Shown here: positions 1-14,339 of the stretch, one piece after another
Layout: each line of letters begins with the position of its first letter
How positions within the stretch are numbered: the stretch's first letter is position 1
Source: Bacillota bacterium
GTDB lineage: Bacteria > Bacillota > Sulfobacillia > JACIYH01
Direction: 5' to 3'
Assembly (NCBI GenBank): GCA_030019365.1
Contig: JASEFA010000004.1
Location: 35,262-99,261 of the forward strand
DNA length: 64,000 nt
Notes under the pieces: generated by a model
What the model was told of the DNA's origin: nothing
The model's database searches: none
What the model saw: only the letters and a program-made list of their open reading frames with translations
Translations under genes and position numbers: made by a program

Positions 1-288
1 GCGTGGGAGACGCTGGAGTGGCTCAGGAGCGCGATTAACGCCGCCTGGGAGAGGAGACACGAGCTGTCACCGGCCTGCCCGGACCGGCGGGCACCTGGCG
101 CCCTGGAGGTGTGGAGGCTGCTGCCGCGCACCAACTGCCGGCGGTGCGGGGAGCTTACCTGCATGGCGTTCGCCGCGAGGCTGGTCATGGGGGAGCAGCG
201 GCTCTCGGGCTGCCCCGCCCTGGGGGAGGCCGGGTACGCCTCCGCCCGGGAGGCCCTGGAGGAACTGGTGGGTGAGGGTGCGTGGTGA
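1..288 (+). CDS. 3' end of a gene (partial at window edge) encoding a putative Fe-S cluster domain protein (PF04060-like CxxCGxxxC motif)
   Basis: Frame-3 translation reads ...RLLPRTNCRRCGELTCMAFAARLVMGEQRLSGCPALGE... and ends at TGA 286-288. This is clearly paralogous to the LLPRSNCGRCGEPACLAFAAKVASGERGARDCPVL segment of ORF 10892..11842. The motif resembles the N-terminal 4Fe-4S domain of corrinoid Fe-S protein / RnfB-type proteins (established knowledge, not searched). Confidence 0.45.
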   Translation, partial: AWETLEWLRSAINAAWERRHELSPACPDRRAPGALEVWRLLPRTNCRRCGELTCMAFAARLVMGEQRLSGCPALGEAGYASAREALEELVGEGAW

Positions 289-1075
289 AGGGGCCCGGGG
301 GAGGAGGGCCGTGGGGACCATGCCGCGAGCCGGATCCCGGGGGGCGGGAGCCTGGCGCCGGGTCGAGGAGATGCTGGCCGGGGACGGACCGGTGGTCGTG
401 AGCCTGGCCCCCTCTTACGTGGCGGCGTTCGAGGCCTCTCCCGGGCAGGTGGTGGCGGCGCTGCGGTCGCTGGGTTTCCGGGTGGTGGAAGAGACCGCCT
501 CGGTGCTGGGGGAGATGATCAGGCGGCGGGAGGAGATGGCGCGGGAGGCGGTCCCGGTCCTTTCGGGTTCGTGCCCGGTGGTAAGGCGCCTGATCGCCGG
601 GGAGTTCCCGTGGCTGCTTCCCCGGGTCGAGCCGGCTTCCGCCATGGGGCTTCACCTCGCCCGGCTCAGGTACCGGTACCCGGGTGCGCGTGCGGTCTTC
701 CTGGGGCCGTGCGAGGCCAAGCGCCTGCTGCCCGAGCCCGTGCAGCCGGACGCGGTGCTCACCTTCCGGGAAGTGGCGTCCTGGTGGTACGCCAGGGGAA
801 TCGACCCCGGGCGGTGCGAGCCCTCGGTGCCCGACCGCACGGCGGACGCCCTGGCCCGTATCTCGGTGGCCGTGGTTCACGCAAGTGGGCTGGAGGAATG
901 CCGCCGGATGCTTTCCCGGGTCAGCGCCGGTCCCTGGGAGGGACTGCCCTACCTGGAGATCACCGCCTGCCCCGGCGGGTGCCTGAACGGGCCGGGGATG
1001 CCGCCGGCGGACGCAGGGGAGCGCCGGCAGAAGGCAGTGCAGTACGCCATGGAGGCGGAGTTGTGCCTCCGCTAA
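272..1075 (+). CDS. [FeFe]-hydrogenase large-subunit C-terminal (H-cluster-like) domain protein; more likely start is ATG at about 320
   Basis: ORF-track protein contains FLGPCEAKRLL (like the MPCxxKxxE L2 motif) and EITACPGGCLNGPGMP (like the ExMACxGGCxxGGGQP L3 motif), plus a degenerate L1 (SGSCPVV). It overlaps the upstream Fe-S-domain gene by 17 nt in another frame, so the two may be one gene broken by a frameshift. Confidence 0.55.
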   Translation: MRVRGEGARGRRAVGTMPRAGSRGAGAWRRVEEMLAGDGPVVVSLAPSYVAAFEASPGQVVAALRSLGFRVVEETASVLGEMIRRREEMAREAVPVLSGSCPVVRRLIAGEFPWLLPRVEPASAMGLHLARLRYRYPGARAVFLGPCEAKRLLPEPVQPDAVLTFREVASWWYARGIDPGRCEPSVPDRTADALARISVAVVHASGLEECRRMLSRVSAGPWEGLPYLEITACPGGCLNGPGMPPADAGERRQKAVQYAMEAELCLR

Positions 1076-1093
1076 GCCGGCGGGAGGTGTGAG

Positions 1094-1372
1094 GTGTTGG
1101 CGGTAGCAAGGCTCAATGTCGAGCTGGGAGGGGGCCTCGGGCGGCTGGTGGGCAAGGAGAGCGTGGAAGTGGAGCTGGACCTTCCCGCGCGCAGGGAGGA
1201 GGTGATCTCCGCCCTGGCGGAGCAGGTACCGGAGTTGTCGCGCCTGCTGGGCACGGGGGAAGCGGCGAGGTCCCTGGTGGCCGTGAGCGTGGGGGGCGTG
1301 GTGCTGCGCGAAGGGCAGGAGGTCGGCCCCGGGGACTCCGTGTCGGTGTTCATGGCCTTTGCCGGAGGGTGA
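1094..1372 (+). CDS. MoaD/ThiS-family small sulfur-carrier protein
   Basis: 92-aa protein ending ...VFMAFAGG followed directly by a stop. The C-terminal Gly-Gly is the hallmark of MoaD/ThiS beta-grasp carriers. Its stop overlaps the next gene by 4 nt. Confidence 0.55.
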   Translation: MLAVARLNVELGGGLGRLVGKESVEVELDLPARREEVISALAEQVPELSRLLGTGEAARSLVAVSVGGVVLREGQEVGPGDSVSVFMAFAGG

Positions 1373-1878
1373 GGGGGGAGAGCGTGATACCGGGAGTGCG
1401 CCTGGTGGTGGTGGGGGGCGTGGAGGTGGGCCTCATCGGCCTGGACGAGGCCTTCGCGGAGCTCGAGGCGGCCGGGATCGTTGACCCCGAGGGACGCAAG
1501 GCTTTCCTGCTCTCCCGCGTCAAGGAGAAGAACTACGTGCCTGGGCGCAGGGAGGTGGCCTACGCGGAGGCGCTGCTCGAGGAGTACCTGGTGTGGAAGG
1601 GGGAGCGGCCGCCGCGGAAGAGTGCGGTCCCCAAGGTGAAGGTGCTGGGGCCGGGATGCCCCAACTGCCAGGCGCTGGAGCGCCTGGTGCTGGACGTCCT
1701 GGGCGAGCTGGGGGTGGGGGTTGACTTCGAGCACGTGCGCGACCCGCGGGAGATAGGGCGGTTCGGGGTGTTCGCCTCGCCCGCGCTGGCGGTGGGGGAC
1801 CGCCTGCTCGTGTCGGGGCGGGTGCCGCGCCGGGAGGAACTGAAGAGGATGCTGCAGGAGGCCCTGGAGTCGCGCTGA
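1369..1878 (+). CDS. Two-domain protein with C-terminal thioredoxin-fold redox-active disulfide domain (CPNC; TM0996/MTH895-like); N-terminal domain unassigned
   Basis: C-terminal ~80 aa KVKVLGPGCPNCQALERLV...FASPALAVGDRLLVSGRVP aligns with the stand-alone thioredoxin-like ORF 6499..6735 (MKIEVLGPGCQKCQALLKNV...). Likely start is GTG ~1384 after GAGGGGGGAGAG. It is translationally coupled to the MoaD-like gene. Confidence 0.5.
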   Translation: MRGESVIPGVRLVVVGGVEVGLIGLDEAFAELEAAGIVDPEGRKAFLLSRVKEKNYVPGRREVAYAEALLEEYLVWKGERPPRKSAVPKVKVLGPGCPNCQALERLVLDVLGELGVGVDFEHVRDPREIGRFGVFASPALAVGDRLLVSGRVPRREELKRMLQEALESR

Positions 1879-2008: not shown

Positions 2009-2901
2009 TCAGCGCAGCGCCTCCAGCACCAGCCCGGTGGCCACCGCTACCAGGAAGACGGTGAGGGCGAAGGTCGCTACTGTTCTTTTCTTGAAGAGGG
2101 AACCCAGCAGGGCGAGCTCGGGGATGCTGGCCCCCGCCCCCCGATGAGCAGGGCGACCACAGCCCCCAGGCTCATGCCCTTGGAGGCGAGCACCGCCCCG
2201 ATGGGGATGATAGTCTCGGCGCGGATGTACATGGGGACTCCGAGAGCAGCCGCCACCAGTATGGCGAAGGGATTGTGCGGTCCGGCCAGCCTGACGACGA
2301 GCTCCTGGGGCACGAATCCGTAGATGAACGCTCCGACCGCAGCGCCGACGAGGAGGTAGGGGAGCACCTGGCGGAACAGGCTCAGCGCGAACGCCAGGGC
2401 GGCGGCCAGGGCGCCGGGGGCAGGGCGCGACCCGGTCCCCTGCTCGTCGTCCCTCACGACCCTCACCCGCTTGACGTCGGCGGCGAGCCCCGCACGTTCC
2501 CAGAGGCGGCCCGAGATTACGCTGAGGGGGAAGACGAGGGCGGTGTAGGCGGCCGCGGTGGCCGGGCCCAGAATGGTGGCCATCATGGTGAGGATGACCG
2601 GGTTGAGGAGGGGTGAGGCGATGAGGAAGGCGCTGGCGGCGCCGAAGGGGACGCCCGCCCCCAGCATGCCCGCCAGGATGGGGATGGTGGAGCAGGAGCA
2701 GAAAGGCGTGACGGCTCCGAACGCCGCCGTGAGCACCGTGGCCACCCAGGCGTTCCTCCTGCCCAGGACGCTCTGGACCCTCTCGGGGGGAAGGAAGTGT
2801 GTGACGAGGCCCACCAGGAAGGTGACGGCGAGGAACAGTACCACCAGTTCGCCGGTGATGACGAGAAACCACCGGCCTGCCGCTGCCAGCGTGGATGTCA
2901 T
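2009..2901 (-). CDS. DUF318/PF03773-family permease (ArsP-like, CSCSTIP motif) with an apparent frameshift near 2130 in a C/G homopolymer run
   Basis: ORF 2077..2901 carries the permease body (TPFCSCSTIPILAGML, multiple TM segments) but ends ...LIGGRGPASPSSPCWVPSSRKEQ. The overlapping frame (ORF 2009..2872) supplies a plausible hydrophobic C-terminus ...ASIPELALLGSLFKKRTVATFALTVFLVAVATGLVLEALR. The switch falls in ctggcccccgccccccgatgag (~2125-2146). It is a paralog of ORF 6818..7999. Confidence 0.6.
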
Positions 2902-4853: not shown

Positions 4854-5999
4854 TCACGAGCGCCACGCCGGGGTGACGTCCGGGCGGTAGTAGCGGCGGT
4901 GGAACGCGAGGGCCACGTTGACCAGCGCCAGCATCACCGGGACCTCTATGAGGGGACCGATGACGGCGGCGAAGGCCTGGCCGGAGTTGAGCCCGAACAC
5001 CGCCACCGCCACCGCGATGGCCAGCTCGAAGTTGTTGCTGGCGGCGGTGAAGGAGAGGCTGGTCGTCTGCGGGTAGTTCACCCCGAGGCGCATGCTGAGG
5101 AAGAAAGACGCCAGGAACATGACGACGAAATAGACGATGAGGGGTATGGCTATCCTGACCACATCCAGGGGCAGCCTGACGATGTATCCGCCCTTGAGGG
5201 AGAACATGACCACGATGGTGAAGAGGAGGGCTATGAGGGCCAAGGGGCTAATGCGGGGGACGAACCGCTCCTCGTACCATTTCTCGCCCTTGAGGGGTGC
5301 GAGGATGGTCCTGGTGAGGAAGCCGGCCACGAAGGGGATGCCCAGGTAAATGGCAACGCTCTTCGCCACCTCGCCGATGGTGACGTGCACCACGGCACCT
5401 TTCAGTCCGAAGACGGTGGGGAGGATGGTAATGAACACGTAGCTATAGACCGAGTAGAAGAACACCTGGAAAAGGGAGTTGAATGCCACCAGGGCGGCGG
5501 CGTACTCGCTATCGCCCCGCGCCAGGGCGTTCCACACGATGACCATGGCGATGCAGCGGGCCAGGCCGATGAGGATGAGCCCCACCATGTATTCGGGGTA
5601 GTTGCGCAAAAAAGTGATGGCCAGGATGAACATCAGGATGGGGCCGATGATCCAGTTCTGGACGAGAGACAGGGCGAGCACCCGGGTGTTGCGGAACACC
5701 TTGCCCAGTTCACCGTACCTGACCTTGGCCAGGGGAGGGTACATCATGACGATGAGGCCGACGGCGATGGGGATAGAGGTGGTGCCGACTGACAGCCTGT
5801 CAAGCAGGTCAGCCACCCCGGGGAACACGTACCCCAACGCCACCCCGGCGGCCATGGCCAGGAGTATCCACAAGGTGAGCAGGCGGTCGAGCAGAGAGAG
5901 CCCGATGGTACGGTTCTCGGCCAACGGAGCTGCCACTCCTTTCCGAGTGTGCTTCTCCCGCCGGTCTGGCGGGCTATCACTCATTGAGCATATCTTCAT
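4854..5999 (-). CDS. acr3: ACR3-family arsenite efflux transporter
   Basis: [34 protein letters not shown] (conserved ACR3 Cys) and [20 protein letters not shown] are diagnostic ACR3 motifs. It has ~10 TM segments. The start is probably a few codons inside the ORF (MSDSPPD...). Confidence 0.85.
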
Positions 6000-6008
6000 C
6001 CTCTTCCT

Positions 6009-6024
6009 GTGTCAAGTGCTTGAC
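6009..6024. promoter_or_regulatory. Near-perfect palindrome TGTCAAGTGCTTGACA in the acr3 / arsR divergent intergenic region; candidate ArsR/SmtB operator
   Basis: 7-bp inverted arms TGTCAAG / CTTGACA separated by 2 nt. It sits between divergently transcribed acr3 and arsR. Confidence 0.4.
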
Positions 6025-6046
6025 AGGTTCCTCTCAGTAGAGTATC

Positions 6047-6457
6047 TTGAAGCTAAGCATATATTCCAAGATGGTGGTGGCTTCTGTGACGGAGGGTTTA
6101 CTCGAGCAGATGGCGGCGGTGCTGAGAGCCCTGGGGCACCCGGCTAGGTTGCGGATCGTGGAGTTCCTGGTCGATGGCGACCTGTGCTCGGGGAGGGACT
6201 GCTCGGGGGAAAAGTGCGTCTGCGAGATCATCCCTGCCCTGGGCATGGAGCAATCGAGCGTGTCCAAGCACCTGGCCATCCTGCGGGACCGGGGTATCGT
6301 CAACTTCAGGCGGGAAGGGACGCGGACGTTTTACTCGCTTGCCGACCCCCGGGTGCTGGAGATACTCAGGCTGGCCCGGGAGGTGTGTATCGGCCACCTG
6401 AGCCGGGCGGAGAAGGTGCTTGCCGAGGCGCGGCGTGTTGACGGTAGCGGATTATGA
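6047..6457 (+). CDS. arsR: ArsR/SmtB-family metalloregulator (arsenite-type CVC site)
   Basis: LGHPARLRIVEFL...EKCVCEIIPALGMEQSSVSKHLAILRDRGIV is an ArsR helix-turn-helix with the ELCVCDL-type As(III)-binding CVC motif. Extra Cys are present (DLCSGRDCSG). A later start at ATG ~6070 is possible. Confidence 0.8.
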   Translation: MKLSIYSKMVVASVTEGLLEQMAAVLRALGHPARLRIVEFLVDGDLCSGRDCSGEKCVCEIIPALGMEQSSVSKHLAILRDRGIVNFRREGTRTFYSLADPRVLEILRLAREVCIGHLSRAEKVLAEARRVDGSGL

Positions 6458-6498
6458 TGATATATTCATAACGCTAATCAAGGACAGGAGGTGCGGCG

Positions 6499-6735
6499 GT
6501 GAAGATCGAGGTTCTGGGACCGGGCTGCCAGAAGTGCCAGGCGCTGCTGAAGAACGTGACGGAGGCCCTGGCCGAGAGCGGCCGGGAGGCGGAGGTCGTG
6601 AAGGTCGAGGACGTGTTCGAGATCATGCAGCGGGGCGTCAACCACACCCCGGCCATAATCATCGACGGCGAGCTGAAGCTCCAGGGCCGGGTGGCCACGG
6701 TGCGGGAGATCACAGGCTGGATTACAGGAAAGTAA
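6499..6735 (+). CDS. Small thioredoxin-family redox-active disulfide protein (TM0996/MTH895-like)
   Basis: 78 aa, MKIEVLGPGCQKCQALLKNV... has a CxxC active site. It starts at GTG after AGGAGGTG. This family is classically encoded beside DUF318 permeases. Confidence 0.7.
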   Translation: MKIEVLGPGCQKCQALLKNVTEALAESGREAEVVKVEDVFEIMQRGVNHTPAIIIDGELKLQGRVATVREITGWITGK

Positions 6736-6817: not shown

Positions 6818-7999
6818 GTGGCAGAGTTACGCAAGTTCTTCTGGCTGCTCGGGGCATTCCTTGCCGCCTACTTCGTGCCGTTCGGGCACCCGCGGGTGTC
6901 AGGGGCCATCCTGGAAGCCTTCCACATGCTGCAGGAGTACGCGCGCCAGCACGTGCTCCTGTGCCTGGTGCCGGCCCTGTTCATCGCCGGGGCGATCGCG
7001 AACTTCGTGTCGCAGGCTTCGGTGATCAAGTACTTCAGCGGGCAGGCCAAAAAGTGGCTTTCGTACTCGGTGGCCTCGGTCTCGGGGACCATCCTGGCGG
7101 TATGCTCGTGCACGGTGCTGCCCTTGTTTGCGGGGATATACCAGCGGGGGGCGGGGCTGGGTCCTGCCATAGCGTTCCTTTACTCGGGGCCGGCCATCAA
7201 CATCCTGGCCATCATCCTGACGGCCAGGGTGCTGGGGTGGAAGCTGGGGCTGGCGAGGGCGCTCGGTGCGGTGTTCTTTTCGGCGGTGATAGGGCTGATC
7301 ATGGCGTACATTTACCGCCACGAGGAGAAGCAGCGCACGGAGGCGGTGTCGCAGCGGGTAGCGGAAGCGATGAGGCAGAAAGAGGCCCGGAGCGGGGCGC
7401 AGAACCTTTTGTACTTCGCGGCCATGGTCGGTATCCTGGTGTTCGCCAACTGGGGGAAGCCGGCGCAGCCGGTGGGGTTCTGGAACGCGGTGTTCGAGGT
7501 CAAGTGGTACATTACGGGAGCGCTCTTGGTCCTCCTCGCCTATATGCTGGCCAGGTGGTTCCGCCGGGCCGAGCTTTCTTCCTGGGTGAGCGCCACCTGG
7601 GGTTTTGCCGGGCAGATCATACCGCTTCTTTTTGCGGGTGTGCTGGCCGCGGGGGTTCTCATGGGCCGGCCGGGCACGGATGCCGGGCTGATTCCGTCGC
7701 GGTGGATCGAGGCTGCGGTGGGCGGCAACTCCCTGCGGGCGAACCTGCTTGCTTCGGTGGCCGGGGCGCTGATGTACTTCGCCACGTTGACGGAGGTGCC
7801 CATCCTGCAGGGGCTGTTAGGGTCGGGGATGGGGCAGGGTCCCGCCCTGGCCTTGCTTCTGGCGGGCCCGGCTCTTAGCCTGCCCAACATGCTGGTGATC
7901 CGCAGCGTGATCGGCACGAAGAAGATGCTGACGTACGTGGGCCTGGTGGCGGTGATGGCCACGCTCACGGGGATGATCTTCGGGGCGATAGTGGGCTAG
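6818..7999 (+). CDS. DUF318/PF03773-family permease (ArsP-like)
   Basis: 393 aa, polytopic, with ILAVCSCTVLPLFAG (CSC motif) and GWKLGLARALGAV. It is a paralog of the permease at 2009..2901. Confidence 0.7.
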   Translation: MAELRKFFWLLGAFLAAYFVPFGHPRVSGAILEAFHMLQEYARQHVLLCLVPALFIAGAIANFVSQASVIKYFSGQAKKWLSYSVASVSGTILAVCSCTVLPLFAGIYQRGAGLGPAIAFLYSGPAINILAIILTARVLGWKLGLARALGAVFFSAVIGLIMAYIYRHEEKQRTEAVSQRVAEAMRQKEARSGAQNLLYFAAMVGILVFANWGKPAQPVGFWNAVFEVKWYITGALLVLLAYMLARWFRRAELSSWVSATWGFAGQIIPLLFAGVLAAGVLMGRPGTDAGLIPSRWIEAAVGGNSLRANLLASVAGALMYFATLTEVPILQGLLGSGMGQGPALALLLAGPALSLPNMLVIRSVIGTKKMLTYVGLVAVMATLTGMIFGAIVG

Positions 8000-8024: not shown

Positions 8025-8504
8025 GTGGCGGAGATCGTGTACCTGGGCCTGGCCGGGGTGCTGCTTCTGGTTTCATGGAGGAAGGACCGGGGCACCACCC
8101 GGCGGGCACTGTCCATCACCCTGGCCACGTTCAAGAAGACCATGCCCTTCATCCTCCTCGTATTCGTGCTGATGGGCGTAGCTCAGGCTTACGTGCCACG
8201 TTCGGTCATCGCTGCCGTCCTGGGTGGTCACAGTGGACCCCTGGCCGTCCTCTACGGGGAGGCGGTGGGCTCGGTGGCCCTCATCCAGCCTTCTGCCGTT
8301 TTCCCCTTTGCCGGATATCTTCTGGCCAACGGGGCGAGCATAGGGGCCCTGGCGGGGTTCATCCTCACGGCCATACTGATCGGCGTCTCCACGCTGCCCA
8401 TCGAGGTGAGCATGCTGGGGTTGCGGTTCACGGTGGCGAGGAACGTGCTGACGTTTGTGGCGGTCTTCCTGGTGGCGCTGGCGATGGGGGCGATCCTGTC
8501 ATGA
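8025..8504 (+). CDS. Half-size permease-like membrane protein (split DUF318-type permease, first gene of pair)
   Basis: 159 aa, ~4-5 TM segments, ...MLGLRFTVARNVLTF... It is a paralog of ORF 12729..13208 and related to the C-terminal repeat of the fused permeases. Confidence 0.5.
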   Translation: MAEIVYLGLAGVLLLVSWRKDRGTTRRALSITLATFKKTMPFILLVFVLMGVAQAYVPRSVIAAVLGGHSGPLAVLYGEAVGSVALIQPSAVFPFAGYLLANGASIGALAGFILTAILIGVSTLPIEVSMLGLRFTVARNVLTFVAVFLVALAMGAILS

Positions 8505-9025
8505 AGAAGCTTGACTCTTCCCTGGCCAGTCTGGTGGCGGCGGGCGTGCTGGCGGGATCGGTCTGGCTGGTTTCGCCGGCACGGGGCGCGGTGGTGGTGC
8601 ATGTGGCCTGGAATGCTCTTGCCATCTCGTGGCTCATCATCCTGAGCGTGTTCGTTTACATCGGGCTCTTACAGGCCTGGGTGAAGCCGGCGGCCATGGC
8701 CAGGTGGCTGGGTAGGAGCTCGGGGGCGAAGGGATTTGCCCTGGCTTCCACGCTGGGCATATTCCTGGGCGGGTCGCTGGTGACGGTGTTCCCCCTGCTG
8801 GCAGCCTTGCGGCAGAAGGGGGCCAGGGTCGGTGTGCTGGCCGCGCTGGTGACGGCTTGGGGAGGGAAGGCTCCGCTGCTGCCGCTGGAAGGCCGGTTCC
8901 TGGGGTGGCAGTTCGCCCTGGTGCGCATGGTCATGGTGATGCTGATGGCAGCTCTTGTGGGGGTGGGAGTGGAAAGGCTTGTGGGAGAGCGGCAGGAAGG
9001 TGGCACCAGCAGCGTGCCCGGGTGA
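8501..9025 (+). CDS. Half-size permease-like membrane protein (split DUF318-type permease, second gene of pair)
   Basis: Starts at ATG 8501 overlapping the upstream stop (ATGA). Sequence VMKKLDSSLASLVAAGVLAG...EGRFLGWQFALVRMVMVML is a paralog of ORF 13205..13780. It lies inside the longer track ORF 8075..9025. Confidence 0.5.
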   Translation: MKKLDSSLASLVAAGVLAGSVWLVSPARGAVVVHVAWNALAISWLIILSVFVYIGLLQAWVKPAAMARWLGRSSGAKGFALASTLGIFLGGSLVTVFPLLAALRQKGARVGVLAALVTAWGGKAPLLPLEGRFLGWQFALVRMVMVMLMAALVGVGVERLVGERQEGGTSSVPG

Positions 9026-9109: not shown

Positions 9110-9586
9110 ATGACGCAGCCCATGGAATGGCAGCCCGGGATGGTCACGCACGAAAACGCGATCTTCGTGTGCTTCGGCGGCCTTTCGAACACGGGGTACA
9201 TCACCGCCCTGGCGGGGATGGAAGCGGTGCGGAGGGTGGGTCTCAAGAAGGCGGCCATCTTCTGCCTGGCGGGACTTCCGGTGGAAGTGAAGATGGTGCT
9301 GGCCAAGGCGAAGGCGGCGAAAAAGATCATCACGGTGGATGGCTGTGCCAACAACTGCGCGAAGAAGCTGGTCGAGGCGGCGGGCTTTCCCATCACGAGG
9401 TCAATCACCCTGGCCGTGGACCTGGGGGTGAAGAAAGTGCCGCTGCACAGGGATCTGGACGGCGAGCCCAAGGATGTGATGGAGTACATCTCCCAGGAGG
9501 ACGTGGCCAGGACGGTCGAGGCCATACTGGCAGCGATTGAAGGCGAGGAGCCTGCCGCGGCCTCCGCATCCGGGGGTGAAGCGTGA
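9110..9586 (+). CDS. DGC-domain protein (putative zinc-binding)
   Basis: ...KIITVDGCANNCAKKLVEAAG... matches the DGC motif/cysteine pattern of PF08859-like proteins. RBS is GGGGAGGAG. Confidence 0.55.
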   Translation: MTQPMEWQPGMVTHENAIFVCFGGLSNTGYITALAGMEAVRRVGLKKAAIFCLAGLPVEVKMVLAKAKAAKKIITVDGCANNCAKKLVEAAGFPITRSITLAVDLGVKKVPLHRDLDGEPKDVMEYISQEDVARTVEAILAAIEGEEPAAASASGGEA

Positions 9587-10404
9587 TGCTGGCTGGGCCT
9601 GCCGGTGAACGCGCAGAGTGCGGGGGCGTCCTGCGGGATCTGTACGGCCACGTCATGTCTTCCCTGCGGCCGAAGACCTTTCCCTTCGGGGTCAAGCTTT
9701 ACCGCAGCCTGGACGAGCGACCGCCTGGGCTTTTGTCCCCGCGGCACCCCATGAACGTGTGCCAGGTGACAGCTCTGGTCCGCTACTACGGGCGGTGCAT
9801 GTACGCCACCTGGCAGGACATGGCGTGTGTGGTCGGCGCGGTGGCCCTGGGCATGATGGAGCCGCCGGAAAACATGCGGTCGGGGAAGATCGCCGAGATG
9901 CTGCACGCGGACCTCGATTCCGCGCGCCGCTTCACGGAACTGGTTCCGCGCATTCCGGCGGGGACTGTCAAGGCTTTTGCCGCGGCGCCGCTCGACCGGT
10001 TGACGTTTGAACCCGATATGGTGGTGATGTACGCGAACACGGCCCAAGCGGTGAGGGTGGTACAGGCCTATCTTTACCGGCGGGGAGGACGGGCGGCCTT
10101 CAGCACGGGTGGCGAATACAGCCTGTGTGCGGACATCATCGCGGAGACGTACACCAAGCACGACTTCGCTCTCGCCATCCCCTGTTTCGGGGACCGCAAG
10201 ACGGCCCTGGCGCAGGACGAGGAGCTGACGGTGGCCTTCCCTGCCGACATGGCCCAGGAGATACTGGACGGCCTGGTGGGCACGGCGAAGACGGCTGCCT
10301 ACCCGACGCCCGTGGACATAGGCTTTCCCCAGATGCCCGATTACACCCTGACGGATTGGGCGGTAGCCTTCCGTCGGGGGAAGGTGGGTTCCGGGCCCGG
10401 TTAG
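9583..10404 (+). CDS. DUF169 (COG2043-like) family protein
   Basis: 273 aa with overall resemblance to DUF169/ArCR proteins (recalled, not searched). It overlaps the DGC gene by 4 nt. Confidence 0.45.
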   Translation: MMLAGPAGERAECGGVLRDLYGHVMSSLRPKTFPFGVKLYRSLDERPPGLLSPRHPMNVCQVTALVRYYGRCMYATWQDMACVVGAVALGMMEPPENMRSGKIAEMLHADLDSARRFTELVPRIPAGTVKAFAAAPLDRLTFEPDMVVMYANTAQAVRVVQAYLYRRGGRAAFSTGGEYSLCADIIAETYTKHDFALAIPCFGDRKTALAQDEELTVAFPADMAQEILDGLVGTAKTAAYPTPVDIGFPQMPDYTLTDWAVAFRRGKVGSGPG

Positions 10405-10455
10405 GGGGGAGGTTGCCGGGAGACCTCGGGGGGCAATCGGTCTTCAGTGGCGGGC

Positions 10456-10481
10456 GGGAGGCACGGCCAGTTGTGCCTCCC
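10456..10481 (+). terminator. Perfect 9-bp stem-loop GGGAGGCAC-N8-GTGCCTCCC without U-tract
   Basis: Seen directly between the DUF169 gene and the MvhD-like gene. GC-rich hairpin; no poly-T follows. Confidence 0.25.
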
Positions 10482-10529
10482 GGATCGCTATGGGGTCTGA
10501 GGTGCGCTGTGGCGGGAGGAGGCGATACC

Positions 10530-10892
10530 TTGCGGAGGCCGCGGGTCTTGCTGTGCGTGTGCCGGGGGTGTCCCGGTTTTGAGCGGGTCGATGCCTGGAC
10601 CCTGGTTAATCGCCTTCGAGACAACCCTGACGTGGAATTCGCGGTGGCGCACCCCCAGCTTTGCGGTGACGATGGGCTGCGTTTCCTGGCCGACCTGGTT
10701 CGGCCGGCCGTCACGTACCTCGTGGGAGCGTGCGATCCCGCCCTGCAGCGCAAGATGTTGAAGGAAACCTTTACCGCTGCCGGTGTGAGCTTTGACGGGC
10801 AGGTGGTGCCCCTCGACCTGCGCAACATGACGACCGAAGAAGCTGCGGAGAAAGTGGCCGAGGCGGTGAGGGCGCTCAGGGCCGGACAATAG
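10530..10892 (+). CDS. MvhD/FlpD-like Cys-rich small protein (methyl-viologen-reducing hydrogenase delta subunit family)
   Basis: Internal TTG start after GGAGGAGG gives MRRPRVLLCVCRGCPGFERVDAWTLVNRLRDNPDVEFAVAHPQLCGDDG...LVGACDP. The Cys spacing is PF02662-like. It lies inside track ORF 10125..10892. Confidence 0.4.
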   Translation: MRRPRVLLCVCRGCPGFERVDAWTLVNRLRDNPDVEFAVAHPQLCGDDGLRFLADLVRPAVTYLVGACDPALQRKMLKETFTAAGVSFDGQVVPLDLRNMTTEEAAEKVAEAVRALRAGQ

Positions 10893-11842
10893 TGGCGGAC
10901 CGGAAGGGGTACTGTGGACTGCTGGTTGAGGGGGGTACGTGCGGTGCTGGAGAAGTACTCGATCAGGATCGTCCTGCCGGAATGAATCCTGCCGCCCCCA
11001 CCGTGAACGCCATCTTCGACCTGGAAGAGGACATATCGGAGTTGTTGCCGTACCTGAATGCGACGCTTCAGGGGTGCTTCTATGAACCTACCGGGCCTTA
11101 TCTGAGGTTCATGAAGGAGGGCAAGGCTGTCACGCTGCATGCCCGGCAGGTTACCATCACGCGGCTGGAGGATGAAGAAGAAGCCCGGCGGGTCATGGAG
11201 TGGCTGGTGGAGGTTATCCGCAGCACGCATGCCAACCGTGACAGGATCCAGCCCAGCCACCGGCGGCGTGCTGAGTTGAAGGTGCTGGACGTTTACAGGC
11301 TGTTACCCCGGTCCAATTGCGGCCGCTGCGGCGAACCCGCCTGCCTGGCGTTTGCGGCGAAGGTGGCCTCAGGTGAGCGCGGGGCCCGTGACTGCCCGGT
11401 TCTCTGCGAGCCGGGAAATGAGGAAAGGCTTGCCCGGCTGGAAGAAGCGTTGGGCCAGGGGGAATGCTGGCCGGACCAAGGGGGAAAAGTGATGCATCCC
11501 GAGGAGTACAGGTACAGCAAGACGCACGAGTGGGCCAAGGTTGAGGGTGACCTGGTGCGGGTGGGCCGAGGCCCGGCTGGACTGGTCCGGGGCTGCCGGT
11601 CGCGACGGTGGAGCCTGAGGCGTGCCAGCAAACGGCGGAGCTGGCCCACAAAAGCGCCCGGGCTGGCCACGTGGTGCTTCGCGGGGTCGGGGGCGGGGTG
11701 GGGGCGTATGGCCATCACATCCCGCGTCGCGCCCGGCGTTCTGCATCGCTATACGCCCTGTGAGCTCGAGATCAACCGCGAGGCAGTGCACGTCATGGAT
11801 AATCACCATGAGGGTGATCTGACACTTACTGGCAAGTCATAG
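10892..11842 (+). CDS. Fe-S cluster domain protein (PF04060-like), with a C-terminal region that looks like a frameshifted glycine-cleavage H-protein-like remnant
   Basis: Residues ~130-180 YRLLPRSNCGRCGEPACLAFAAKVASGERGARDCPVLCEPGNEERLARLEEAL are paralogous to the window-start gene. From ATG ~11494 the sequence MHPEEYRYSKTHEWAKVEGDLVRVG matches the conserved GcvH N-terminus, then similarity is lost in all frames. Gene boundaries are uncertain. Confidence 0.4.
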   Translation: MADRKGYCGLLVEGGTCGAGEVLDQDRPAGMNPAAPTVNAIFDLEEDISELLPYLNATLQGCFYEPTGPYLRFMKEGKAVTLHARQVTITRLEDEEEARRVMEWLVEVIRSTHANRDRIQPSHRRRAELKVLDVYRLLPRSNCGRCGEPACLAFAAKVASGERGARDCPVLCEPGNEERLARLEEALGQGECWPDQGGKVMHPEEYRYSKTHEWAKVEGDLVRVGRGPAGLVRGCRSRRWSLRRASKRRSWPTKAPGLATWCFAGSGAGWGRMAITSRVAPGVLHRYTPCELEINREAVHVMDNHHEGDLTLTGKS

Positions 11843-11914: not shown

Positions 11915-11969
11915 TTGACGGCGGTGCCGGGACCGGGTATAATCGTGCTGATAAGTGTACATTGCACTT
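11915..11969 (+). promoter_or_regulatory. Consensus sigma-70-type promoter TTGACG-17 bp-TATAAT followed by imperfect palindrome AAGTGtacattgCACTT (candidate PadR operator) upstream of padR
   Basis: Hexamers at ~11915-11920 and ~11938-11943 with a 17-nt spacer. Palindrome at ~11953-11969. RBS GGAGGG and ATG 11987 follow. Confidence 0.45.
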
Positions 11970-11986: not shown

Positions 11987-12382
11987 ATGTGCGGCGAGCA
12001 TGGCCGCGGTTTCCGCGCGGGCGCCTGCGGCTGTCATGACCGGCGGGGGGAGAGGTTCCTGGAAGCGTGGCTGCTTCTGCTTTTGAAGAGTGGCCCGTCC
12101 CATGGTTACCAGCTGGTGGAACGCCTGGGCCAGGTGCTGGGCGGAAGTGGGTTTCCGGACCCCGGTACGGTGTACAGGAACCTGCGGCGAATGGAGGAGG
12201 AAGGGCTGGTGAGTTCGAGCTGGGACCTCCAGGACAGCGGCCCGCCGCGCCGTCTGTATCGGCTGACCGAGCAGGGCGAGGAGTTGCTCCACGTGTGGGC
12301 TGCGAACGTGGAACATTACCGGGCCCGGCTTGACCGGTTCCTCGGGATGTACCGCGAGCTTGCGGGCGATTCCCGGGGCTAG
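11987..12382 (+). CDS. PadR-family transcriptional regulator with Cys-rich N-terminal extension (MCGEHGRGFRAGACGCH)
   Basis: Core ...WLLLLLKSGPSHGYQLVERLGQVLGGSGFPDPGTVYRNLRRMEEEGLVSSSWDLQDSGPPRRLYRLTEQGEELL is typical PadR. The N-terminal extension resembles the N-terminus of the next small protein. Confidence 0.7.
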   Translation: MCGEHGRGFRAGACGCHDRRGERFLEAWLLLLLKSGPSHGYQLVERLGQVLGGSGFPDPGTVYRNLRRMEEEGLVSSSWDLQDSGPPRRLYRLTEQGEELLHVWAANVEHYRARLDRFLGMYRELAGDSRG

Positions 12383-12728: not shown

Positions 12729-13208
12729 GTGGCGTTCAACCTGGCGCTGTATGCTGTGTCGGCAGTGGTGGTCCTTGTTTCCGCGCTGCGGGACCGGGGT
12801 AAGACACGCCAGGCGCTGGCCGTTGCCTGGCGTTCGTTTTGCCGGGTTGCCCCTTCCATGCTGGGCATCATGGGGCTCATCGGGCTGGTGCTGACTCTGA
12901 CTCCGGCGAGCACGATAGTCACCCTGTTTAACAACCAGAACGTTTGGGGCATCTTGCTGGTTGCCGCCGTCGGGGCGGTGACGCTGATCCCCGGGATCAT
13001 CGCCTATCCCCTAGCGGGTTCCCTGGTGCGCCAGGGAGCGGGGGTGGTGCCGATCGCGGCGTTCATGACCACTCTCATGATGGTCGGCGTGGTAACCGCT
13101 CCCCTGGAGAGCCACTATTTCGGCCGGCGTTTCGCGCTCCTCCGTAACGGCCTCAGTTTCATTGCCGCGTTGGCCATAGCGGCCGCCATGGGGGTGGTGC
13201 TGGGGTGA
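12729..13208 (+). CDS. Half-size permease-like membrane protein (split DUF318-type permease, first gene of pair)
   Basis: Paralog of 8025..8504 (...HYFGRRFALLRNGLSFIAALAIAAAMGVVL). It starts at GTG with GGAGGGAGTGGAGTGG upstream. Confidence 0.5.
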   Translation: MAFNLALYAVSAVVVLVSALRDRGKTRQALAVAWRSFCRVAPSMLGIMGLIGLVLTLTPASTIVTLFNNQNVWGILLVAAVGAVTLIPGIIAYPLAGSLVRQGAGVVPIAAFMTTLMMVGVVTAPLESHYFGRRFALLRNGLSFIAALAIAAAMGVVLG

Positions 13209-13780
13209 GCCCTGGCGGTCGATTGGGGACGAAGCTGGCGAGGCTGCGGCCGTACGCCCTCCTCATTCTCACGCTTGTGGGCGATCTGGCCCTGGGTGTG
13301 GTGAGGCCCGGGCTGGGGTGGCAGGCCGTGCGGACGTCCGCTTCTTACCTGTTGGAAATGCTGCTGGTGCTGCCCCCCATCTTCGTGCTGATCGGCATGC
13401 TGGAGGTGTGGGTTCCCCGGCAGACCATCGTGCGCAACGTGGGCCCCGGGTCCGGACTGCGCGGGCTGGCACTCTCTGTTTTGACCGGGTCTGCTGCTGC
13501 CGGGCCGCTCTACGGGGCCTTTCCCGTGGCCGAGTCTTTGCTCAGGAAGGGTTGTTCGGTATTCAACGCGTGCGTGCTGCTCTGCACCTGGGCGGCGGTG
13601 AAAATCCCCATGATCATGATGGAGGTGAAGTTCCTGGGCTGGCGGTTTTCCCTGGCCCGGCTGGCCTTCACGCTGCCGGCCATCGTGCTCATAAGCTGGC
13701 TGGTGGATCGCTTCACGCCTCGCCTGGGTGGGTTGTGCGGAGAAGACCGGCCTGGGGTGGGTCGGGAGATGCCGCGGTGA
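13205..13780 (+). CDS. Half-size permease-like membrane protein (split DUF318-type permease, second gene of pair)
   Basis: 4-nt overlap with the upstream gene. ...KFLGWRFSLARLAFTLPAIVLISWL is a paralog of 8501..9025. Confidence 0.5.
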   Translation: MSPGGRLGTKLARLRPYALLILTLVGDLALGVVRPGLGWQAVRTSASYLLEMLLVLPPIFVLIGMLEVWVPRQTIVRNVGPGSGLRGLALSVLTGSAAAGPLYGAFPVAESLLRKGCSVFNACVLLCTWAAVKIPMIMMEVKFLGWRFSLARLAFTLPAIVLISWLVDRFTPRLGGLCGEDRPGVGREMPR

Positions 13781-14128: not shown

Positions 14129-14339
14129 GCTCTTACGCTCCTGCGGTGCGGGAAGCCTTGCGTTTGTGCCTGTGGGACTTACAGCACCGAATGACTGGTG
14201 CTCCACATGGTTACGAGGGTGCGGATTTGACCGGTTCCGCCGGGGGAACGCGGGGAGTTGGTAGACGGGGCGGCCGCTTCATGCTATAATTCGCATAAGG
14301 GCATGACCTGGCACCTGCTGTCGGCTCATTGCGTGGGGC

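Follow-up and report, generated by a model that had tools for sequence, protein, structure and literature searches.

Two pairs of overlapping half-size PF03773 permease genes in a Bacillota bacterium probably encode antiparallel heterodimers

We analyzed a 64,000-nucleotide stretch of contig JASEFA010000004.1 from a Bacillota bacterium (assembly GCA_030019365.1, positions 35,262 to 99,261 of the forward strand), hereafter called the window. It contains two pairs of overlapping genes, A1/A2 and B1/B2, each encoding two half-size permeases of the PF03773 (ArsP_1/DUF318/UPF0718) family. The results are best explained if these are paralogous operonic half-permease pairs whose products form antiparallel heterodimers and which arose by duplication of a half-size gene; we put the probability of this joint reading at roughly 0.7. 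An earlier note made from the DNA alone had reported four half-genes here, and all four open reading frames (ORFs) were found, as listed below.

8025..8504, plus strand: A1, type-1 half-permease, 159 amino acids (aa); PF03773 E-value 2.4e-8; 161 homologues
8501..9025, plus strand: A2, type-2 half-permease, 174 aa; PF03773 E-value 5.3e-9; 70 homologues
12729..13208, plus strand: B1, type-1 half-permease, 159 aa, paralogue of A1; PF03773 E-value 5.7e-4; 290 half-size homologues
13205..13780, plus strand: B2, type-2 half-permease, 191 aa, paralogue of A2; PF03773 E-value 1.2e-14

The stop codon of A1 and the start codon of A2 share 4 bp, ATGA, at 8501-8504. The earlier note had described an ATGA overlap in both pairs; this was correct for A1/A2 but not for B1/B2, where the shared 4 bp at 13205-13208 are GTGA. 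The start codon of A1 is GTG, with GGAGG upstream. Profile searches agreed with the assignment of the halves to the DUF318 type. A1, A2, and B2 scored 33.9, 36.1, and 54.6 bits against PF03773, above the Pfam gathering threshold of 32.3 bits, and B1 alone scored below it (19.6 bits). B1 was nevertheless counted as a PF03773 homologue because its family profile aligned to the A1 family profile with 100% probability and a score of 253 in hhalign. All four halves covered only one repeat of the family (approximately profile positions 3-141 of 294), and none of them, at 159-191 aa, contained two homologous repeats in one polypeptide. The two fused permeases that had been placed at 6818 and 2009 were also recovered with PF03773.

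6818..7999, plus strand: F1, fused two-repeat PF03773 permease, 393 aa; PF03773 E-value 4e-76; Cys-Ser-Cys (CSC) at residues 96-98
2009..2901, minus strand: F2, short fused PF03773 permease with a CSC motif; PF03773 E-value 5e-44

F1 lies upstream of A1, and 25 nt separate its end from the A1 start. The motif LG-x-[RK]-F-x3-R was present in A1, A2, B1, B2, and the N-repeat of F1, consistent with the proposal that the halves and the fused repeats have motifs in common. A 1-nt frameshift interrupts F2 at approximately 2137-2142, within a run of G (C on the plus strand). One frame stops at 2077 (…LIGGRGPASPSS…) and the other runs to 2009 with a family-normal C-terminus (…GAGASIPELALLGSLFKK…), which is restored when the frames are joined. 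The end of F2 at 2009 in the earlier note is explained by this frameshift, which is either an assembly error or the mark of a recent pseudogene.

The split state was conserved in other genomes. Searches with A1, A2, and B1 matched 161, 70, and 290 protein clusters, respectively, nearly all half-size and far more than chance would produce, and no protein of fused length was present among the 521 clusters listed. Homologues of A1 were almost all 159-161 aa long and those of A2 mostly 167-174 aa, with type 1 overall at about 160 aa and type 2 overall ranging from 167 to 185 aa. Several A2 homologues were encoded on the same contigs as A1 homologues. Adjacent A-type pairs were found on a 194-kb contig, in a Dehalococcoidia metagenome-assembled genome (MAG), and in Bipolaricaulaceae MAGs, and B-type pairs in the cultured Natronincola peptidivorans, an Ignavibacteriales MAG, and a Spirochaetaceae MAG. 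Scanning GTDB genomes revealed more of them, in Desulfobacterales, Deltaproteobacteria-labelled MAGs, Bacterium UASB270, a Thermotogae-labelled MAG, Spirochaetia, and Halanaerobiales. The half-genes were thus adjacent in at least 17 independent loci besides the window, spread over Chloroflexota, Bipolaricaulota, Desulfobacterota, Spirochaetota, Ignavibacteriales, a Thermotogae-labelled MAG, and Bacillota. The 4-bp overlap occurred in 12 of 20 tabulated pairs, and the remaining pairs were spaced by -19 to +70 nt. These overlaps suggest translational coupling, and with it 1:1 synthesis of the two subunits.

In two loci the order was reversed, with type 2 preceding type 1. These reversed A-type pairs lie at 5388-6465 of locus L021 (Spirochaetia MAG) and at 5349-6420 of locus L023 (Halanaerobiales MAG); in L021, as in the window, a B-type pair and a fused permease are present too. 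Type 1 adjoined type 2 in all A-type loci examined except L022, usually with overlapping stop and start codons. In L022 (95-2528), a type-1/type-2 pair (95-655 and 652-1161) is followed by an additional A1-like gene (1485-2048), next to which is a DGC gene, without an adjacent A2-like gene. This extra A1-like gene may encode an orphan subunit or a shared partner.

These comparisons bear on whether a single fused permease gene has been frameshifted, leaving the halves as pseudogene fragments. The abutting ORFs with their 4-bp overlap could be taken in that way, and F2 in the same window is truly frameshifted. However, the split has been kept with equal subunit lengths in at least 17 loci of several phyla, each half has its own start codon, the order is swapped in L021 and L023, and no fused-length member was among the clusters listed. 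Each half also has its own N-terminal extra helix (modelled with AlphaFold2 for A1 only), and the halves are under purifying conservation, with approximately 50% identity and invariant positions. A single frameshifted gene was therefore excluded by the conserved lengths, separate starts, reversed order, and purifying conservation, and its probability is negligible. The earlier note had considered such an origin unlikely, and the comparative data from other loci now rule it out.

Structures were predicted by AlphaFold2 with family alignments for A1 and F1 only. The A1 model had a predicted local distance difference test score (pLDDT) of 90.1 and a predicted template modelling score (pTM) of 0.76, and the F1 model had a pLDDT of 93.0 and a pTM of 0.89. 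Helices of the A1 model span residues 2-20, 22-56, and 59-66 (short), followed by 72-82, 89-101, 106-118, 121-131, and 133-158. In order, these form the transmembrane (TM) helices TM0 and TM1, a short helix, a helical hairpin, a broken TM helix, and TM4. The size of about 160-190 aa given earlier for the halves was thus accurate, and the accompanying four to five TM helices are better described as four membrane-spanning helices plus one re-entrant hairpin. In the F1 model the A1 pattern appears twice, linked by a charged helix (167-187) and a hydrophobic linker helix (193-210), and the CSC motif (96-98) lies at the break that separates the first two short helices.

No PDB chain was found at an E-value of 0.05 or below by phmmer or by family-profile search, with F1 and the A1 family profile as queries. 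The best structural matches of the models were elevator carriers of the ion-transporter superfamily; Foldseek hits were marginal (NaS1, E-value 9e-3, TM-scores 0.34-0.39). In a paper on the ArsB structure (PMC13381914), the repeats are described as inverted, each with scaffold helices that end in a horizontal helix and are followed by a hairpin, a discontinuous helix, and the last TM helix. The order of elements in the A1 model is that of the ArsB repeat minus one scaffold helix. With moderate confidence, these models point to an ion-transporter-like fold for the halves and for PF03773 permeases. This assignment departs from that in TCDB, in which ArsP (2.A.119) is a member of the TOG superfamily with 4+4 transmembrane segments (TMS) (PMC7176098); the halves did not show the TOG-type repeat, a 4-TMS bundle with both repeats in the same orientation. 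A wider proposal, in which PF03773 has a minimal ion-transporter/DASS-like elevator fold and A1/A2 and B1/B2 would be antiparallel heterodimeric elevator carriers duplicated independently of the fused ArsP-type proteins, is tentative, at somewhat less than even odds.

The published topology also leaves room for a parallel arrangement, in which the halves would form a semiSWEET-like heterodimer of two 4- or 5-TM bundles in the same orientation. The TCDB analysis of ArsP as a 4+4 TMS TOG member (PMC7176098) agrees with such a dimer, hydropathy alone can be read as five TM helices per half, and the Foldseek scores are too weak to settle the fold. We consider it improbable in view of the charge distribution.

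Lysine and arginine residues (K+R) were counted on the two membrane faces of every family member with the topology TM0, TM1, non-crossing hairpin, broken TM helix, and TM4; the result depends on the hairpin topology, which was taken from the AlphaFold2 model. Values are given as mean ± standard deviation.

A1 family (type 1): +6.0 ± 1.1
B1 family (type 1): +7.8 ± 1.8
A2 family (type 2): -6.5 ± 1.1
B2 family (type 2): -7.2 ± 1.6

The sign was positive in 254 of 254 type-1 proteins and negative in 82 of 82 type-2 proteins, without exception among the 336. The window proteins themselves had biases of +8 (A1), +8 (B1), -7 (A2), and -7 (B2). A plain five-TM topology gave small and inconsistent biases (-0.9 to +2.4) and was rejected.

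Opposite charge bias of adjacent homologous genes, together with fused inverted-repeat relatives, is an accepted signature of antiparallel heterodimers (PMC3962082). An antiparallel heterodimer is therefore predicted from the opposite biases of types 1 and 2. Each half polypeptide would correspond to one repeat of a fused permease: two long helices and a short one, then a re-entrant hairpin, a discontinuous helix, and a closing helix. From the bias and the modelled topology, we infer that A1 and B1 insert with both termini outside (N-out/C-out) and A2 and B2 with both termini inside (N-in/C-in). A type-1 and a type-2 subunit would then assemble antiparallel and reproduce the inverted-repeat architecture of the fused protein, each pair being equivalent to one fused protomer. 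The substrate site would form in the middle of the membrane, where the hairpin tips and helix breaks of both subunits come together, as in ArsB/DASS-like elevator carriers. The parity of the fused proteins fits this arrangement: four crossings per unit plus a linker TM helix (F1) or three crossings per unit (the short F2 type) both invert the second repeat. The heterodimeric state of an inverted-repeat fold proposed in the earlier note is thus supported by the conserved pairing, the two half-types, and their opposite charge bias, from which its assembly and orientation are predicted.

A1 and A2 (and likewise B1 and B2) could instead be independent homodimeric transporters whose genes are adjacent by chance after tandem duplication. 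The halves are homologous, small dual-topology proteins are able to homodimerize (PMC3962082), and L022 carries an unpaired A1-like gene. However, adjacency of the two types, usually with overlap, was the rule in every other A-type locus examined, and the biases are strong, fixed, and opposite, whereas values near zero are expected for dual-topology homodimers. A homodimer of fixed topology would have its subunits parallel, which does not match the architecture inferred for the fused relatives. Independent homodimers are consequently very unlikely.

The relationships between the halves and the fused repeats were analyzed with family hidden Markov models (HMMs) and profile-profile alignment, and are given as hhalign scores.

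A1 family versus B1 family: 253
A2 family versus B2 family: 198
Type 1 versus type 2: 112-133
Any half versus the N-repeat of F1-type fused proteins: 67-86
Any half versus the C-repeat of F1-type fused proteins: 27-65
N-repeat versus C-repeat of fused proteins: 86

For the short F2-type fused proteins, the N-repeat scored approximately 60-64 with all halves, and the C-repeat scored 47-48 with type 1 and 16-39 with type 2. In BLASTP, B1 was 35% identical to A1 (E-value 6e-31) and B2 was 31% identical to A2 (E-value 2e-23). In these comparisons the first halves (A1, B1) group as one clade and the second halves (A2, B2) as another, and the four half families are nearer to each other than to any repeat of a fused protein. 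The duplication that separated type 1 from type 2 is older than that which separated A from B; the window therefore contains two truly paralogous pairs, as had been claimed.

The origin most likely on these scores is tandem duplication of a half-size gene rather than fission of an F1- or F2-like gene. The duplicated half-genes would have become fixed in opposite topologies, and the whole pair would then have been duplicated to give A and B. In a direct fission, each type would descend from one repeat of the fused permease, and three observations favor this. In BLASTP, A1 was 32% identical to the frameshift-corrected C-repeat of F2 (E-value 7e-19), a better match than A1 to A2. Type-1 profiles scored 38-65 against C-repeats, above type-2 profiles at 16-39. 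The N unit of the fused family had a charge bias of -6.25, so that the charge orientation of type 2 is that of the fused N unit; the C unit was ambiguous. A slight leaning of type 1 toward the C-repeat and of type 2 toward the N-repeat can be read from these data. However, the scores between types 1 and 2 are far above those of any half with a fused repeat (maximum 86), N-repeats are matched about equally by all four halves (60-86), and the usual order of type 1 followed by type 2 would be permuted relative to N-C. Fission is thus unlikely, and duplication of a half-size gene remains the preferred origin.

Conserved residues were examined with regard to the substrate. The halves have in common a hairpin tip rich in Pro and Gly, a P-x-E that is invariant in the broken helix, and the LG-x-[RK]-F-x3-R junction. 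Type 2 has a conserved Lys at the helix break, and the A1 family has an invariant Glu in hairpin helix a. Residues E79, E127, and R139 in A1 are conserved, as are K122 and the glutamate of LPLE in A2. The CSC tripeptide, which occurs as AVCSCTVLP in F1 and PFCSCSTIP in F2, was absent from the sequences and the family consensus of A1, A2, B1, and B2. A1 and A2 have no cysteines, and B1 and B2 have some. NCBIfam models of metal(loid) subfamilies gave 15-29 bits for A1, A2, and B2 against cut-offs of 300 and 325, and did not match B1. The halves lack the CSC soft-metal motif and so probably do not carry a thiol-bound metal or metalloid, or any substrate bound through a cysteine pair. From the neighboring genes there is a weak indication that the solute is small and tied to thiol, redox, or metalloid homeostasis.

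The following neighboring genes were identified in the window.

6047..6457, plus strand: ArsR-family regulator, upstream of the A-pair operon; PF01022 E-value 1.8e-14
6499..6735, plus strand: small Thioredoxin_3-like CxxC protein (Trx3; 78 aa, GPGCQKCQ), between ArsR and F1; ORF
9110-9586, plus strand: DGC-domain protein, directly downstream of A2; PF08859 E-value 3e-18
9583-10404, plus strand: DUF169 protein; PF02596 E-value 1.5e-55
11987..12382, plus strand: PadR regulator, upstream of the B pair; PF03551 E-value 2e-20

Promoter-like sites were located near ArsR and Trx3 (6020-6048 and 6438-6466). The site at 6438-6466 is followed by a putative operon that starts with Trx3 and runs Trx3-F1-A1-A2-DGC-DUF169-(unannotated)-PF04060 Fe-S protein. 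This operon adjoins ArsR and a divergent ACR3-thioredoxin-CcdA-PadR-F2 block. A further site at 11915-11943 (11 of 12 matches) precedes PadR-B1-B2-cupin. In all, there were five matches to a sigma-70-like promoter, where 0.9 would be expected (5987-6048, 6438-6466, 11915-11943, and 14262-14290). They sit at the ArsR/ACR3 divergent region and before Trx3-F1, PadR-B1, and a radical SAM/SPASM gene, and fit the proposed operon boundaries. A cluster close to F2 (272-1878, plus strand) encodes a protein like the C-terminal part of the Fe-hydrogenase large subunit, a ThiS/MoaD-like protein, and a 169-aa protein with a C-terminal Thioredoxin_3 domain.

Similar neighbors accompany split pairs elsewhere: Thioredoxin_3 in 8 loci (phmmer), DGC in 7, ArsR in 7, PF04060 in 3, and DUF169 in 2. 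The neighbors in these loci also include fused ArsP-like permeases, ACR3, low-molecular-weight phosphatase/ArsC-like proteins, and DsbD/CcdA, and PadR also precedes the B-type pair of L010. The DGC, DUF169, and PF04060 Fe-S genes and that of the unannotated protein (window approximately 10400-10892) recur beside split pairs in several phyla (window 9110-11842, plus strand; L001, L003, L006, L015, L016, L018, L020-L022, and L024). This set looks like a conserved module of cysteine-rich proteins.

ArsP, SO_0444, and SaoE (PF03773, TCDB 2.A.119) are sequence homologues of the halves, with the same repeat unit and P-x-x-E ... LG-x-[RK]-F-x3-R junction. They occur in the same ArsR/thioredoxin contexts and, in the window, in the same operon. 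Their Cys-Ser-Cys is regarded as the metal/metalloid site (bioRxiv 10.1101/2022.07.06.499078); this motif, or Sec-Ser-Cys in its place, is conserved in the first repeat of the metal(loid) efflux subfamilies. These proteins have two repeats in one polypeptide, whereas the halves have a single repeat and no CSC. ArsB, DASS/SLC13 (VcINDY, LaINDY, NaS1, Pho90), AbgT, and TRAP DctM have, per repeat, the order of elements predicted for the halves, in an inverted repeat, but no detectable sequence homology; the halves have one scaffold helix fewer per repeat, and the TM-scores are those given above. These elevator carriers are single chains, whereas the halves are two. Streptococcus mutans SMU.746/SMU.747 (ScfAB; Bacillus subtilis YcgR/YcgQ) resembles the pairs in that a PF03773-family-like permease is described as working with a membrane protein encoded by an adjacent gene. 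It comprises a permease with eight TMS and a partner with two predicted TMS (PMC5584981). We rejected it as a precedent, as it is a full-length permease with a different small partner and not two repeat halves; in the A and B pairs both partners are PF03773 half repeats.

SMR pairs (YdgE/YdgF), Fluc/CrcB pairs, and DUF606 pairs are likewise adjacent homologous genes with opposite K+R bias and fused inverted-repeat relatives. They belong to unrelated families and are simple bundles of 3-5 TM helices, whereas the halves have a predicted re-entrant hairpin and broken helix. Half-size genes are thought to have given rise to inverted-repeat transporters by way of antiparallel heterodimers; the examples well documented in living organisms are mostly very small bundles (SMR, Fluc, DUF606). 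The pathway of duplication, divergence, and fusion for pairs derived from dual topology has been reviewed (PMC3962082). The half proteins themselves are already held in databases as "permease" or "YraQ (UPF0718 family)", and ArsP-family members with 4 TMS are mentioned in a table footnote (PMC7176098). Beyond that footnote, searches of the literature on PF03773/DUF318/UPF0718/2.A.119/SaoE/ArsP found no account of paired half-size members, nor any of two half-types, opposite charge bias, or an ion-transporter-like fold for the PF03773 family. The pairs are a new family-level case of a known evolutionary stage, the antiparallel heterodimer. Its unusual points are the apparent hairpin and broken helix within the repeat, and the presence of fused and split forms in one operon.

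The PF03773 family appears to combine fused proteins and two conserved heterodimeric pairs in one gene cluster, which would offer a system for testing assembly, topology determination, and repeat specialization. The results suggest a re-examination of the fold and superfamily published for the ArsP family. In genome annotation, half-size "permease" genes of this kind are best regarded as members of obligate pairs rather than as fragments or ArsP orthologues. In principle the finding is unremarkable, yet it is a tidy and testable example; if the elevator-fold reading is true, the split and fused forms in one operon would provide a compact test system for the evolution of hairpin-containing inverted-repeat transporters.
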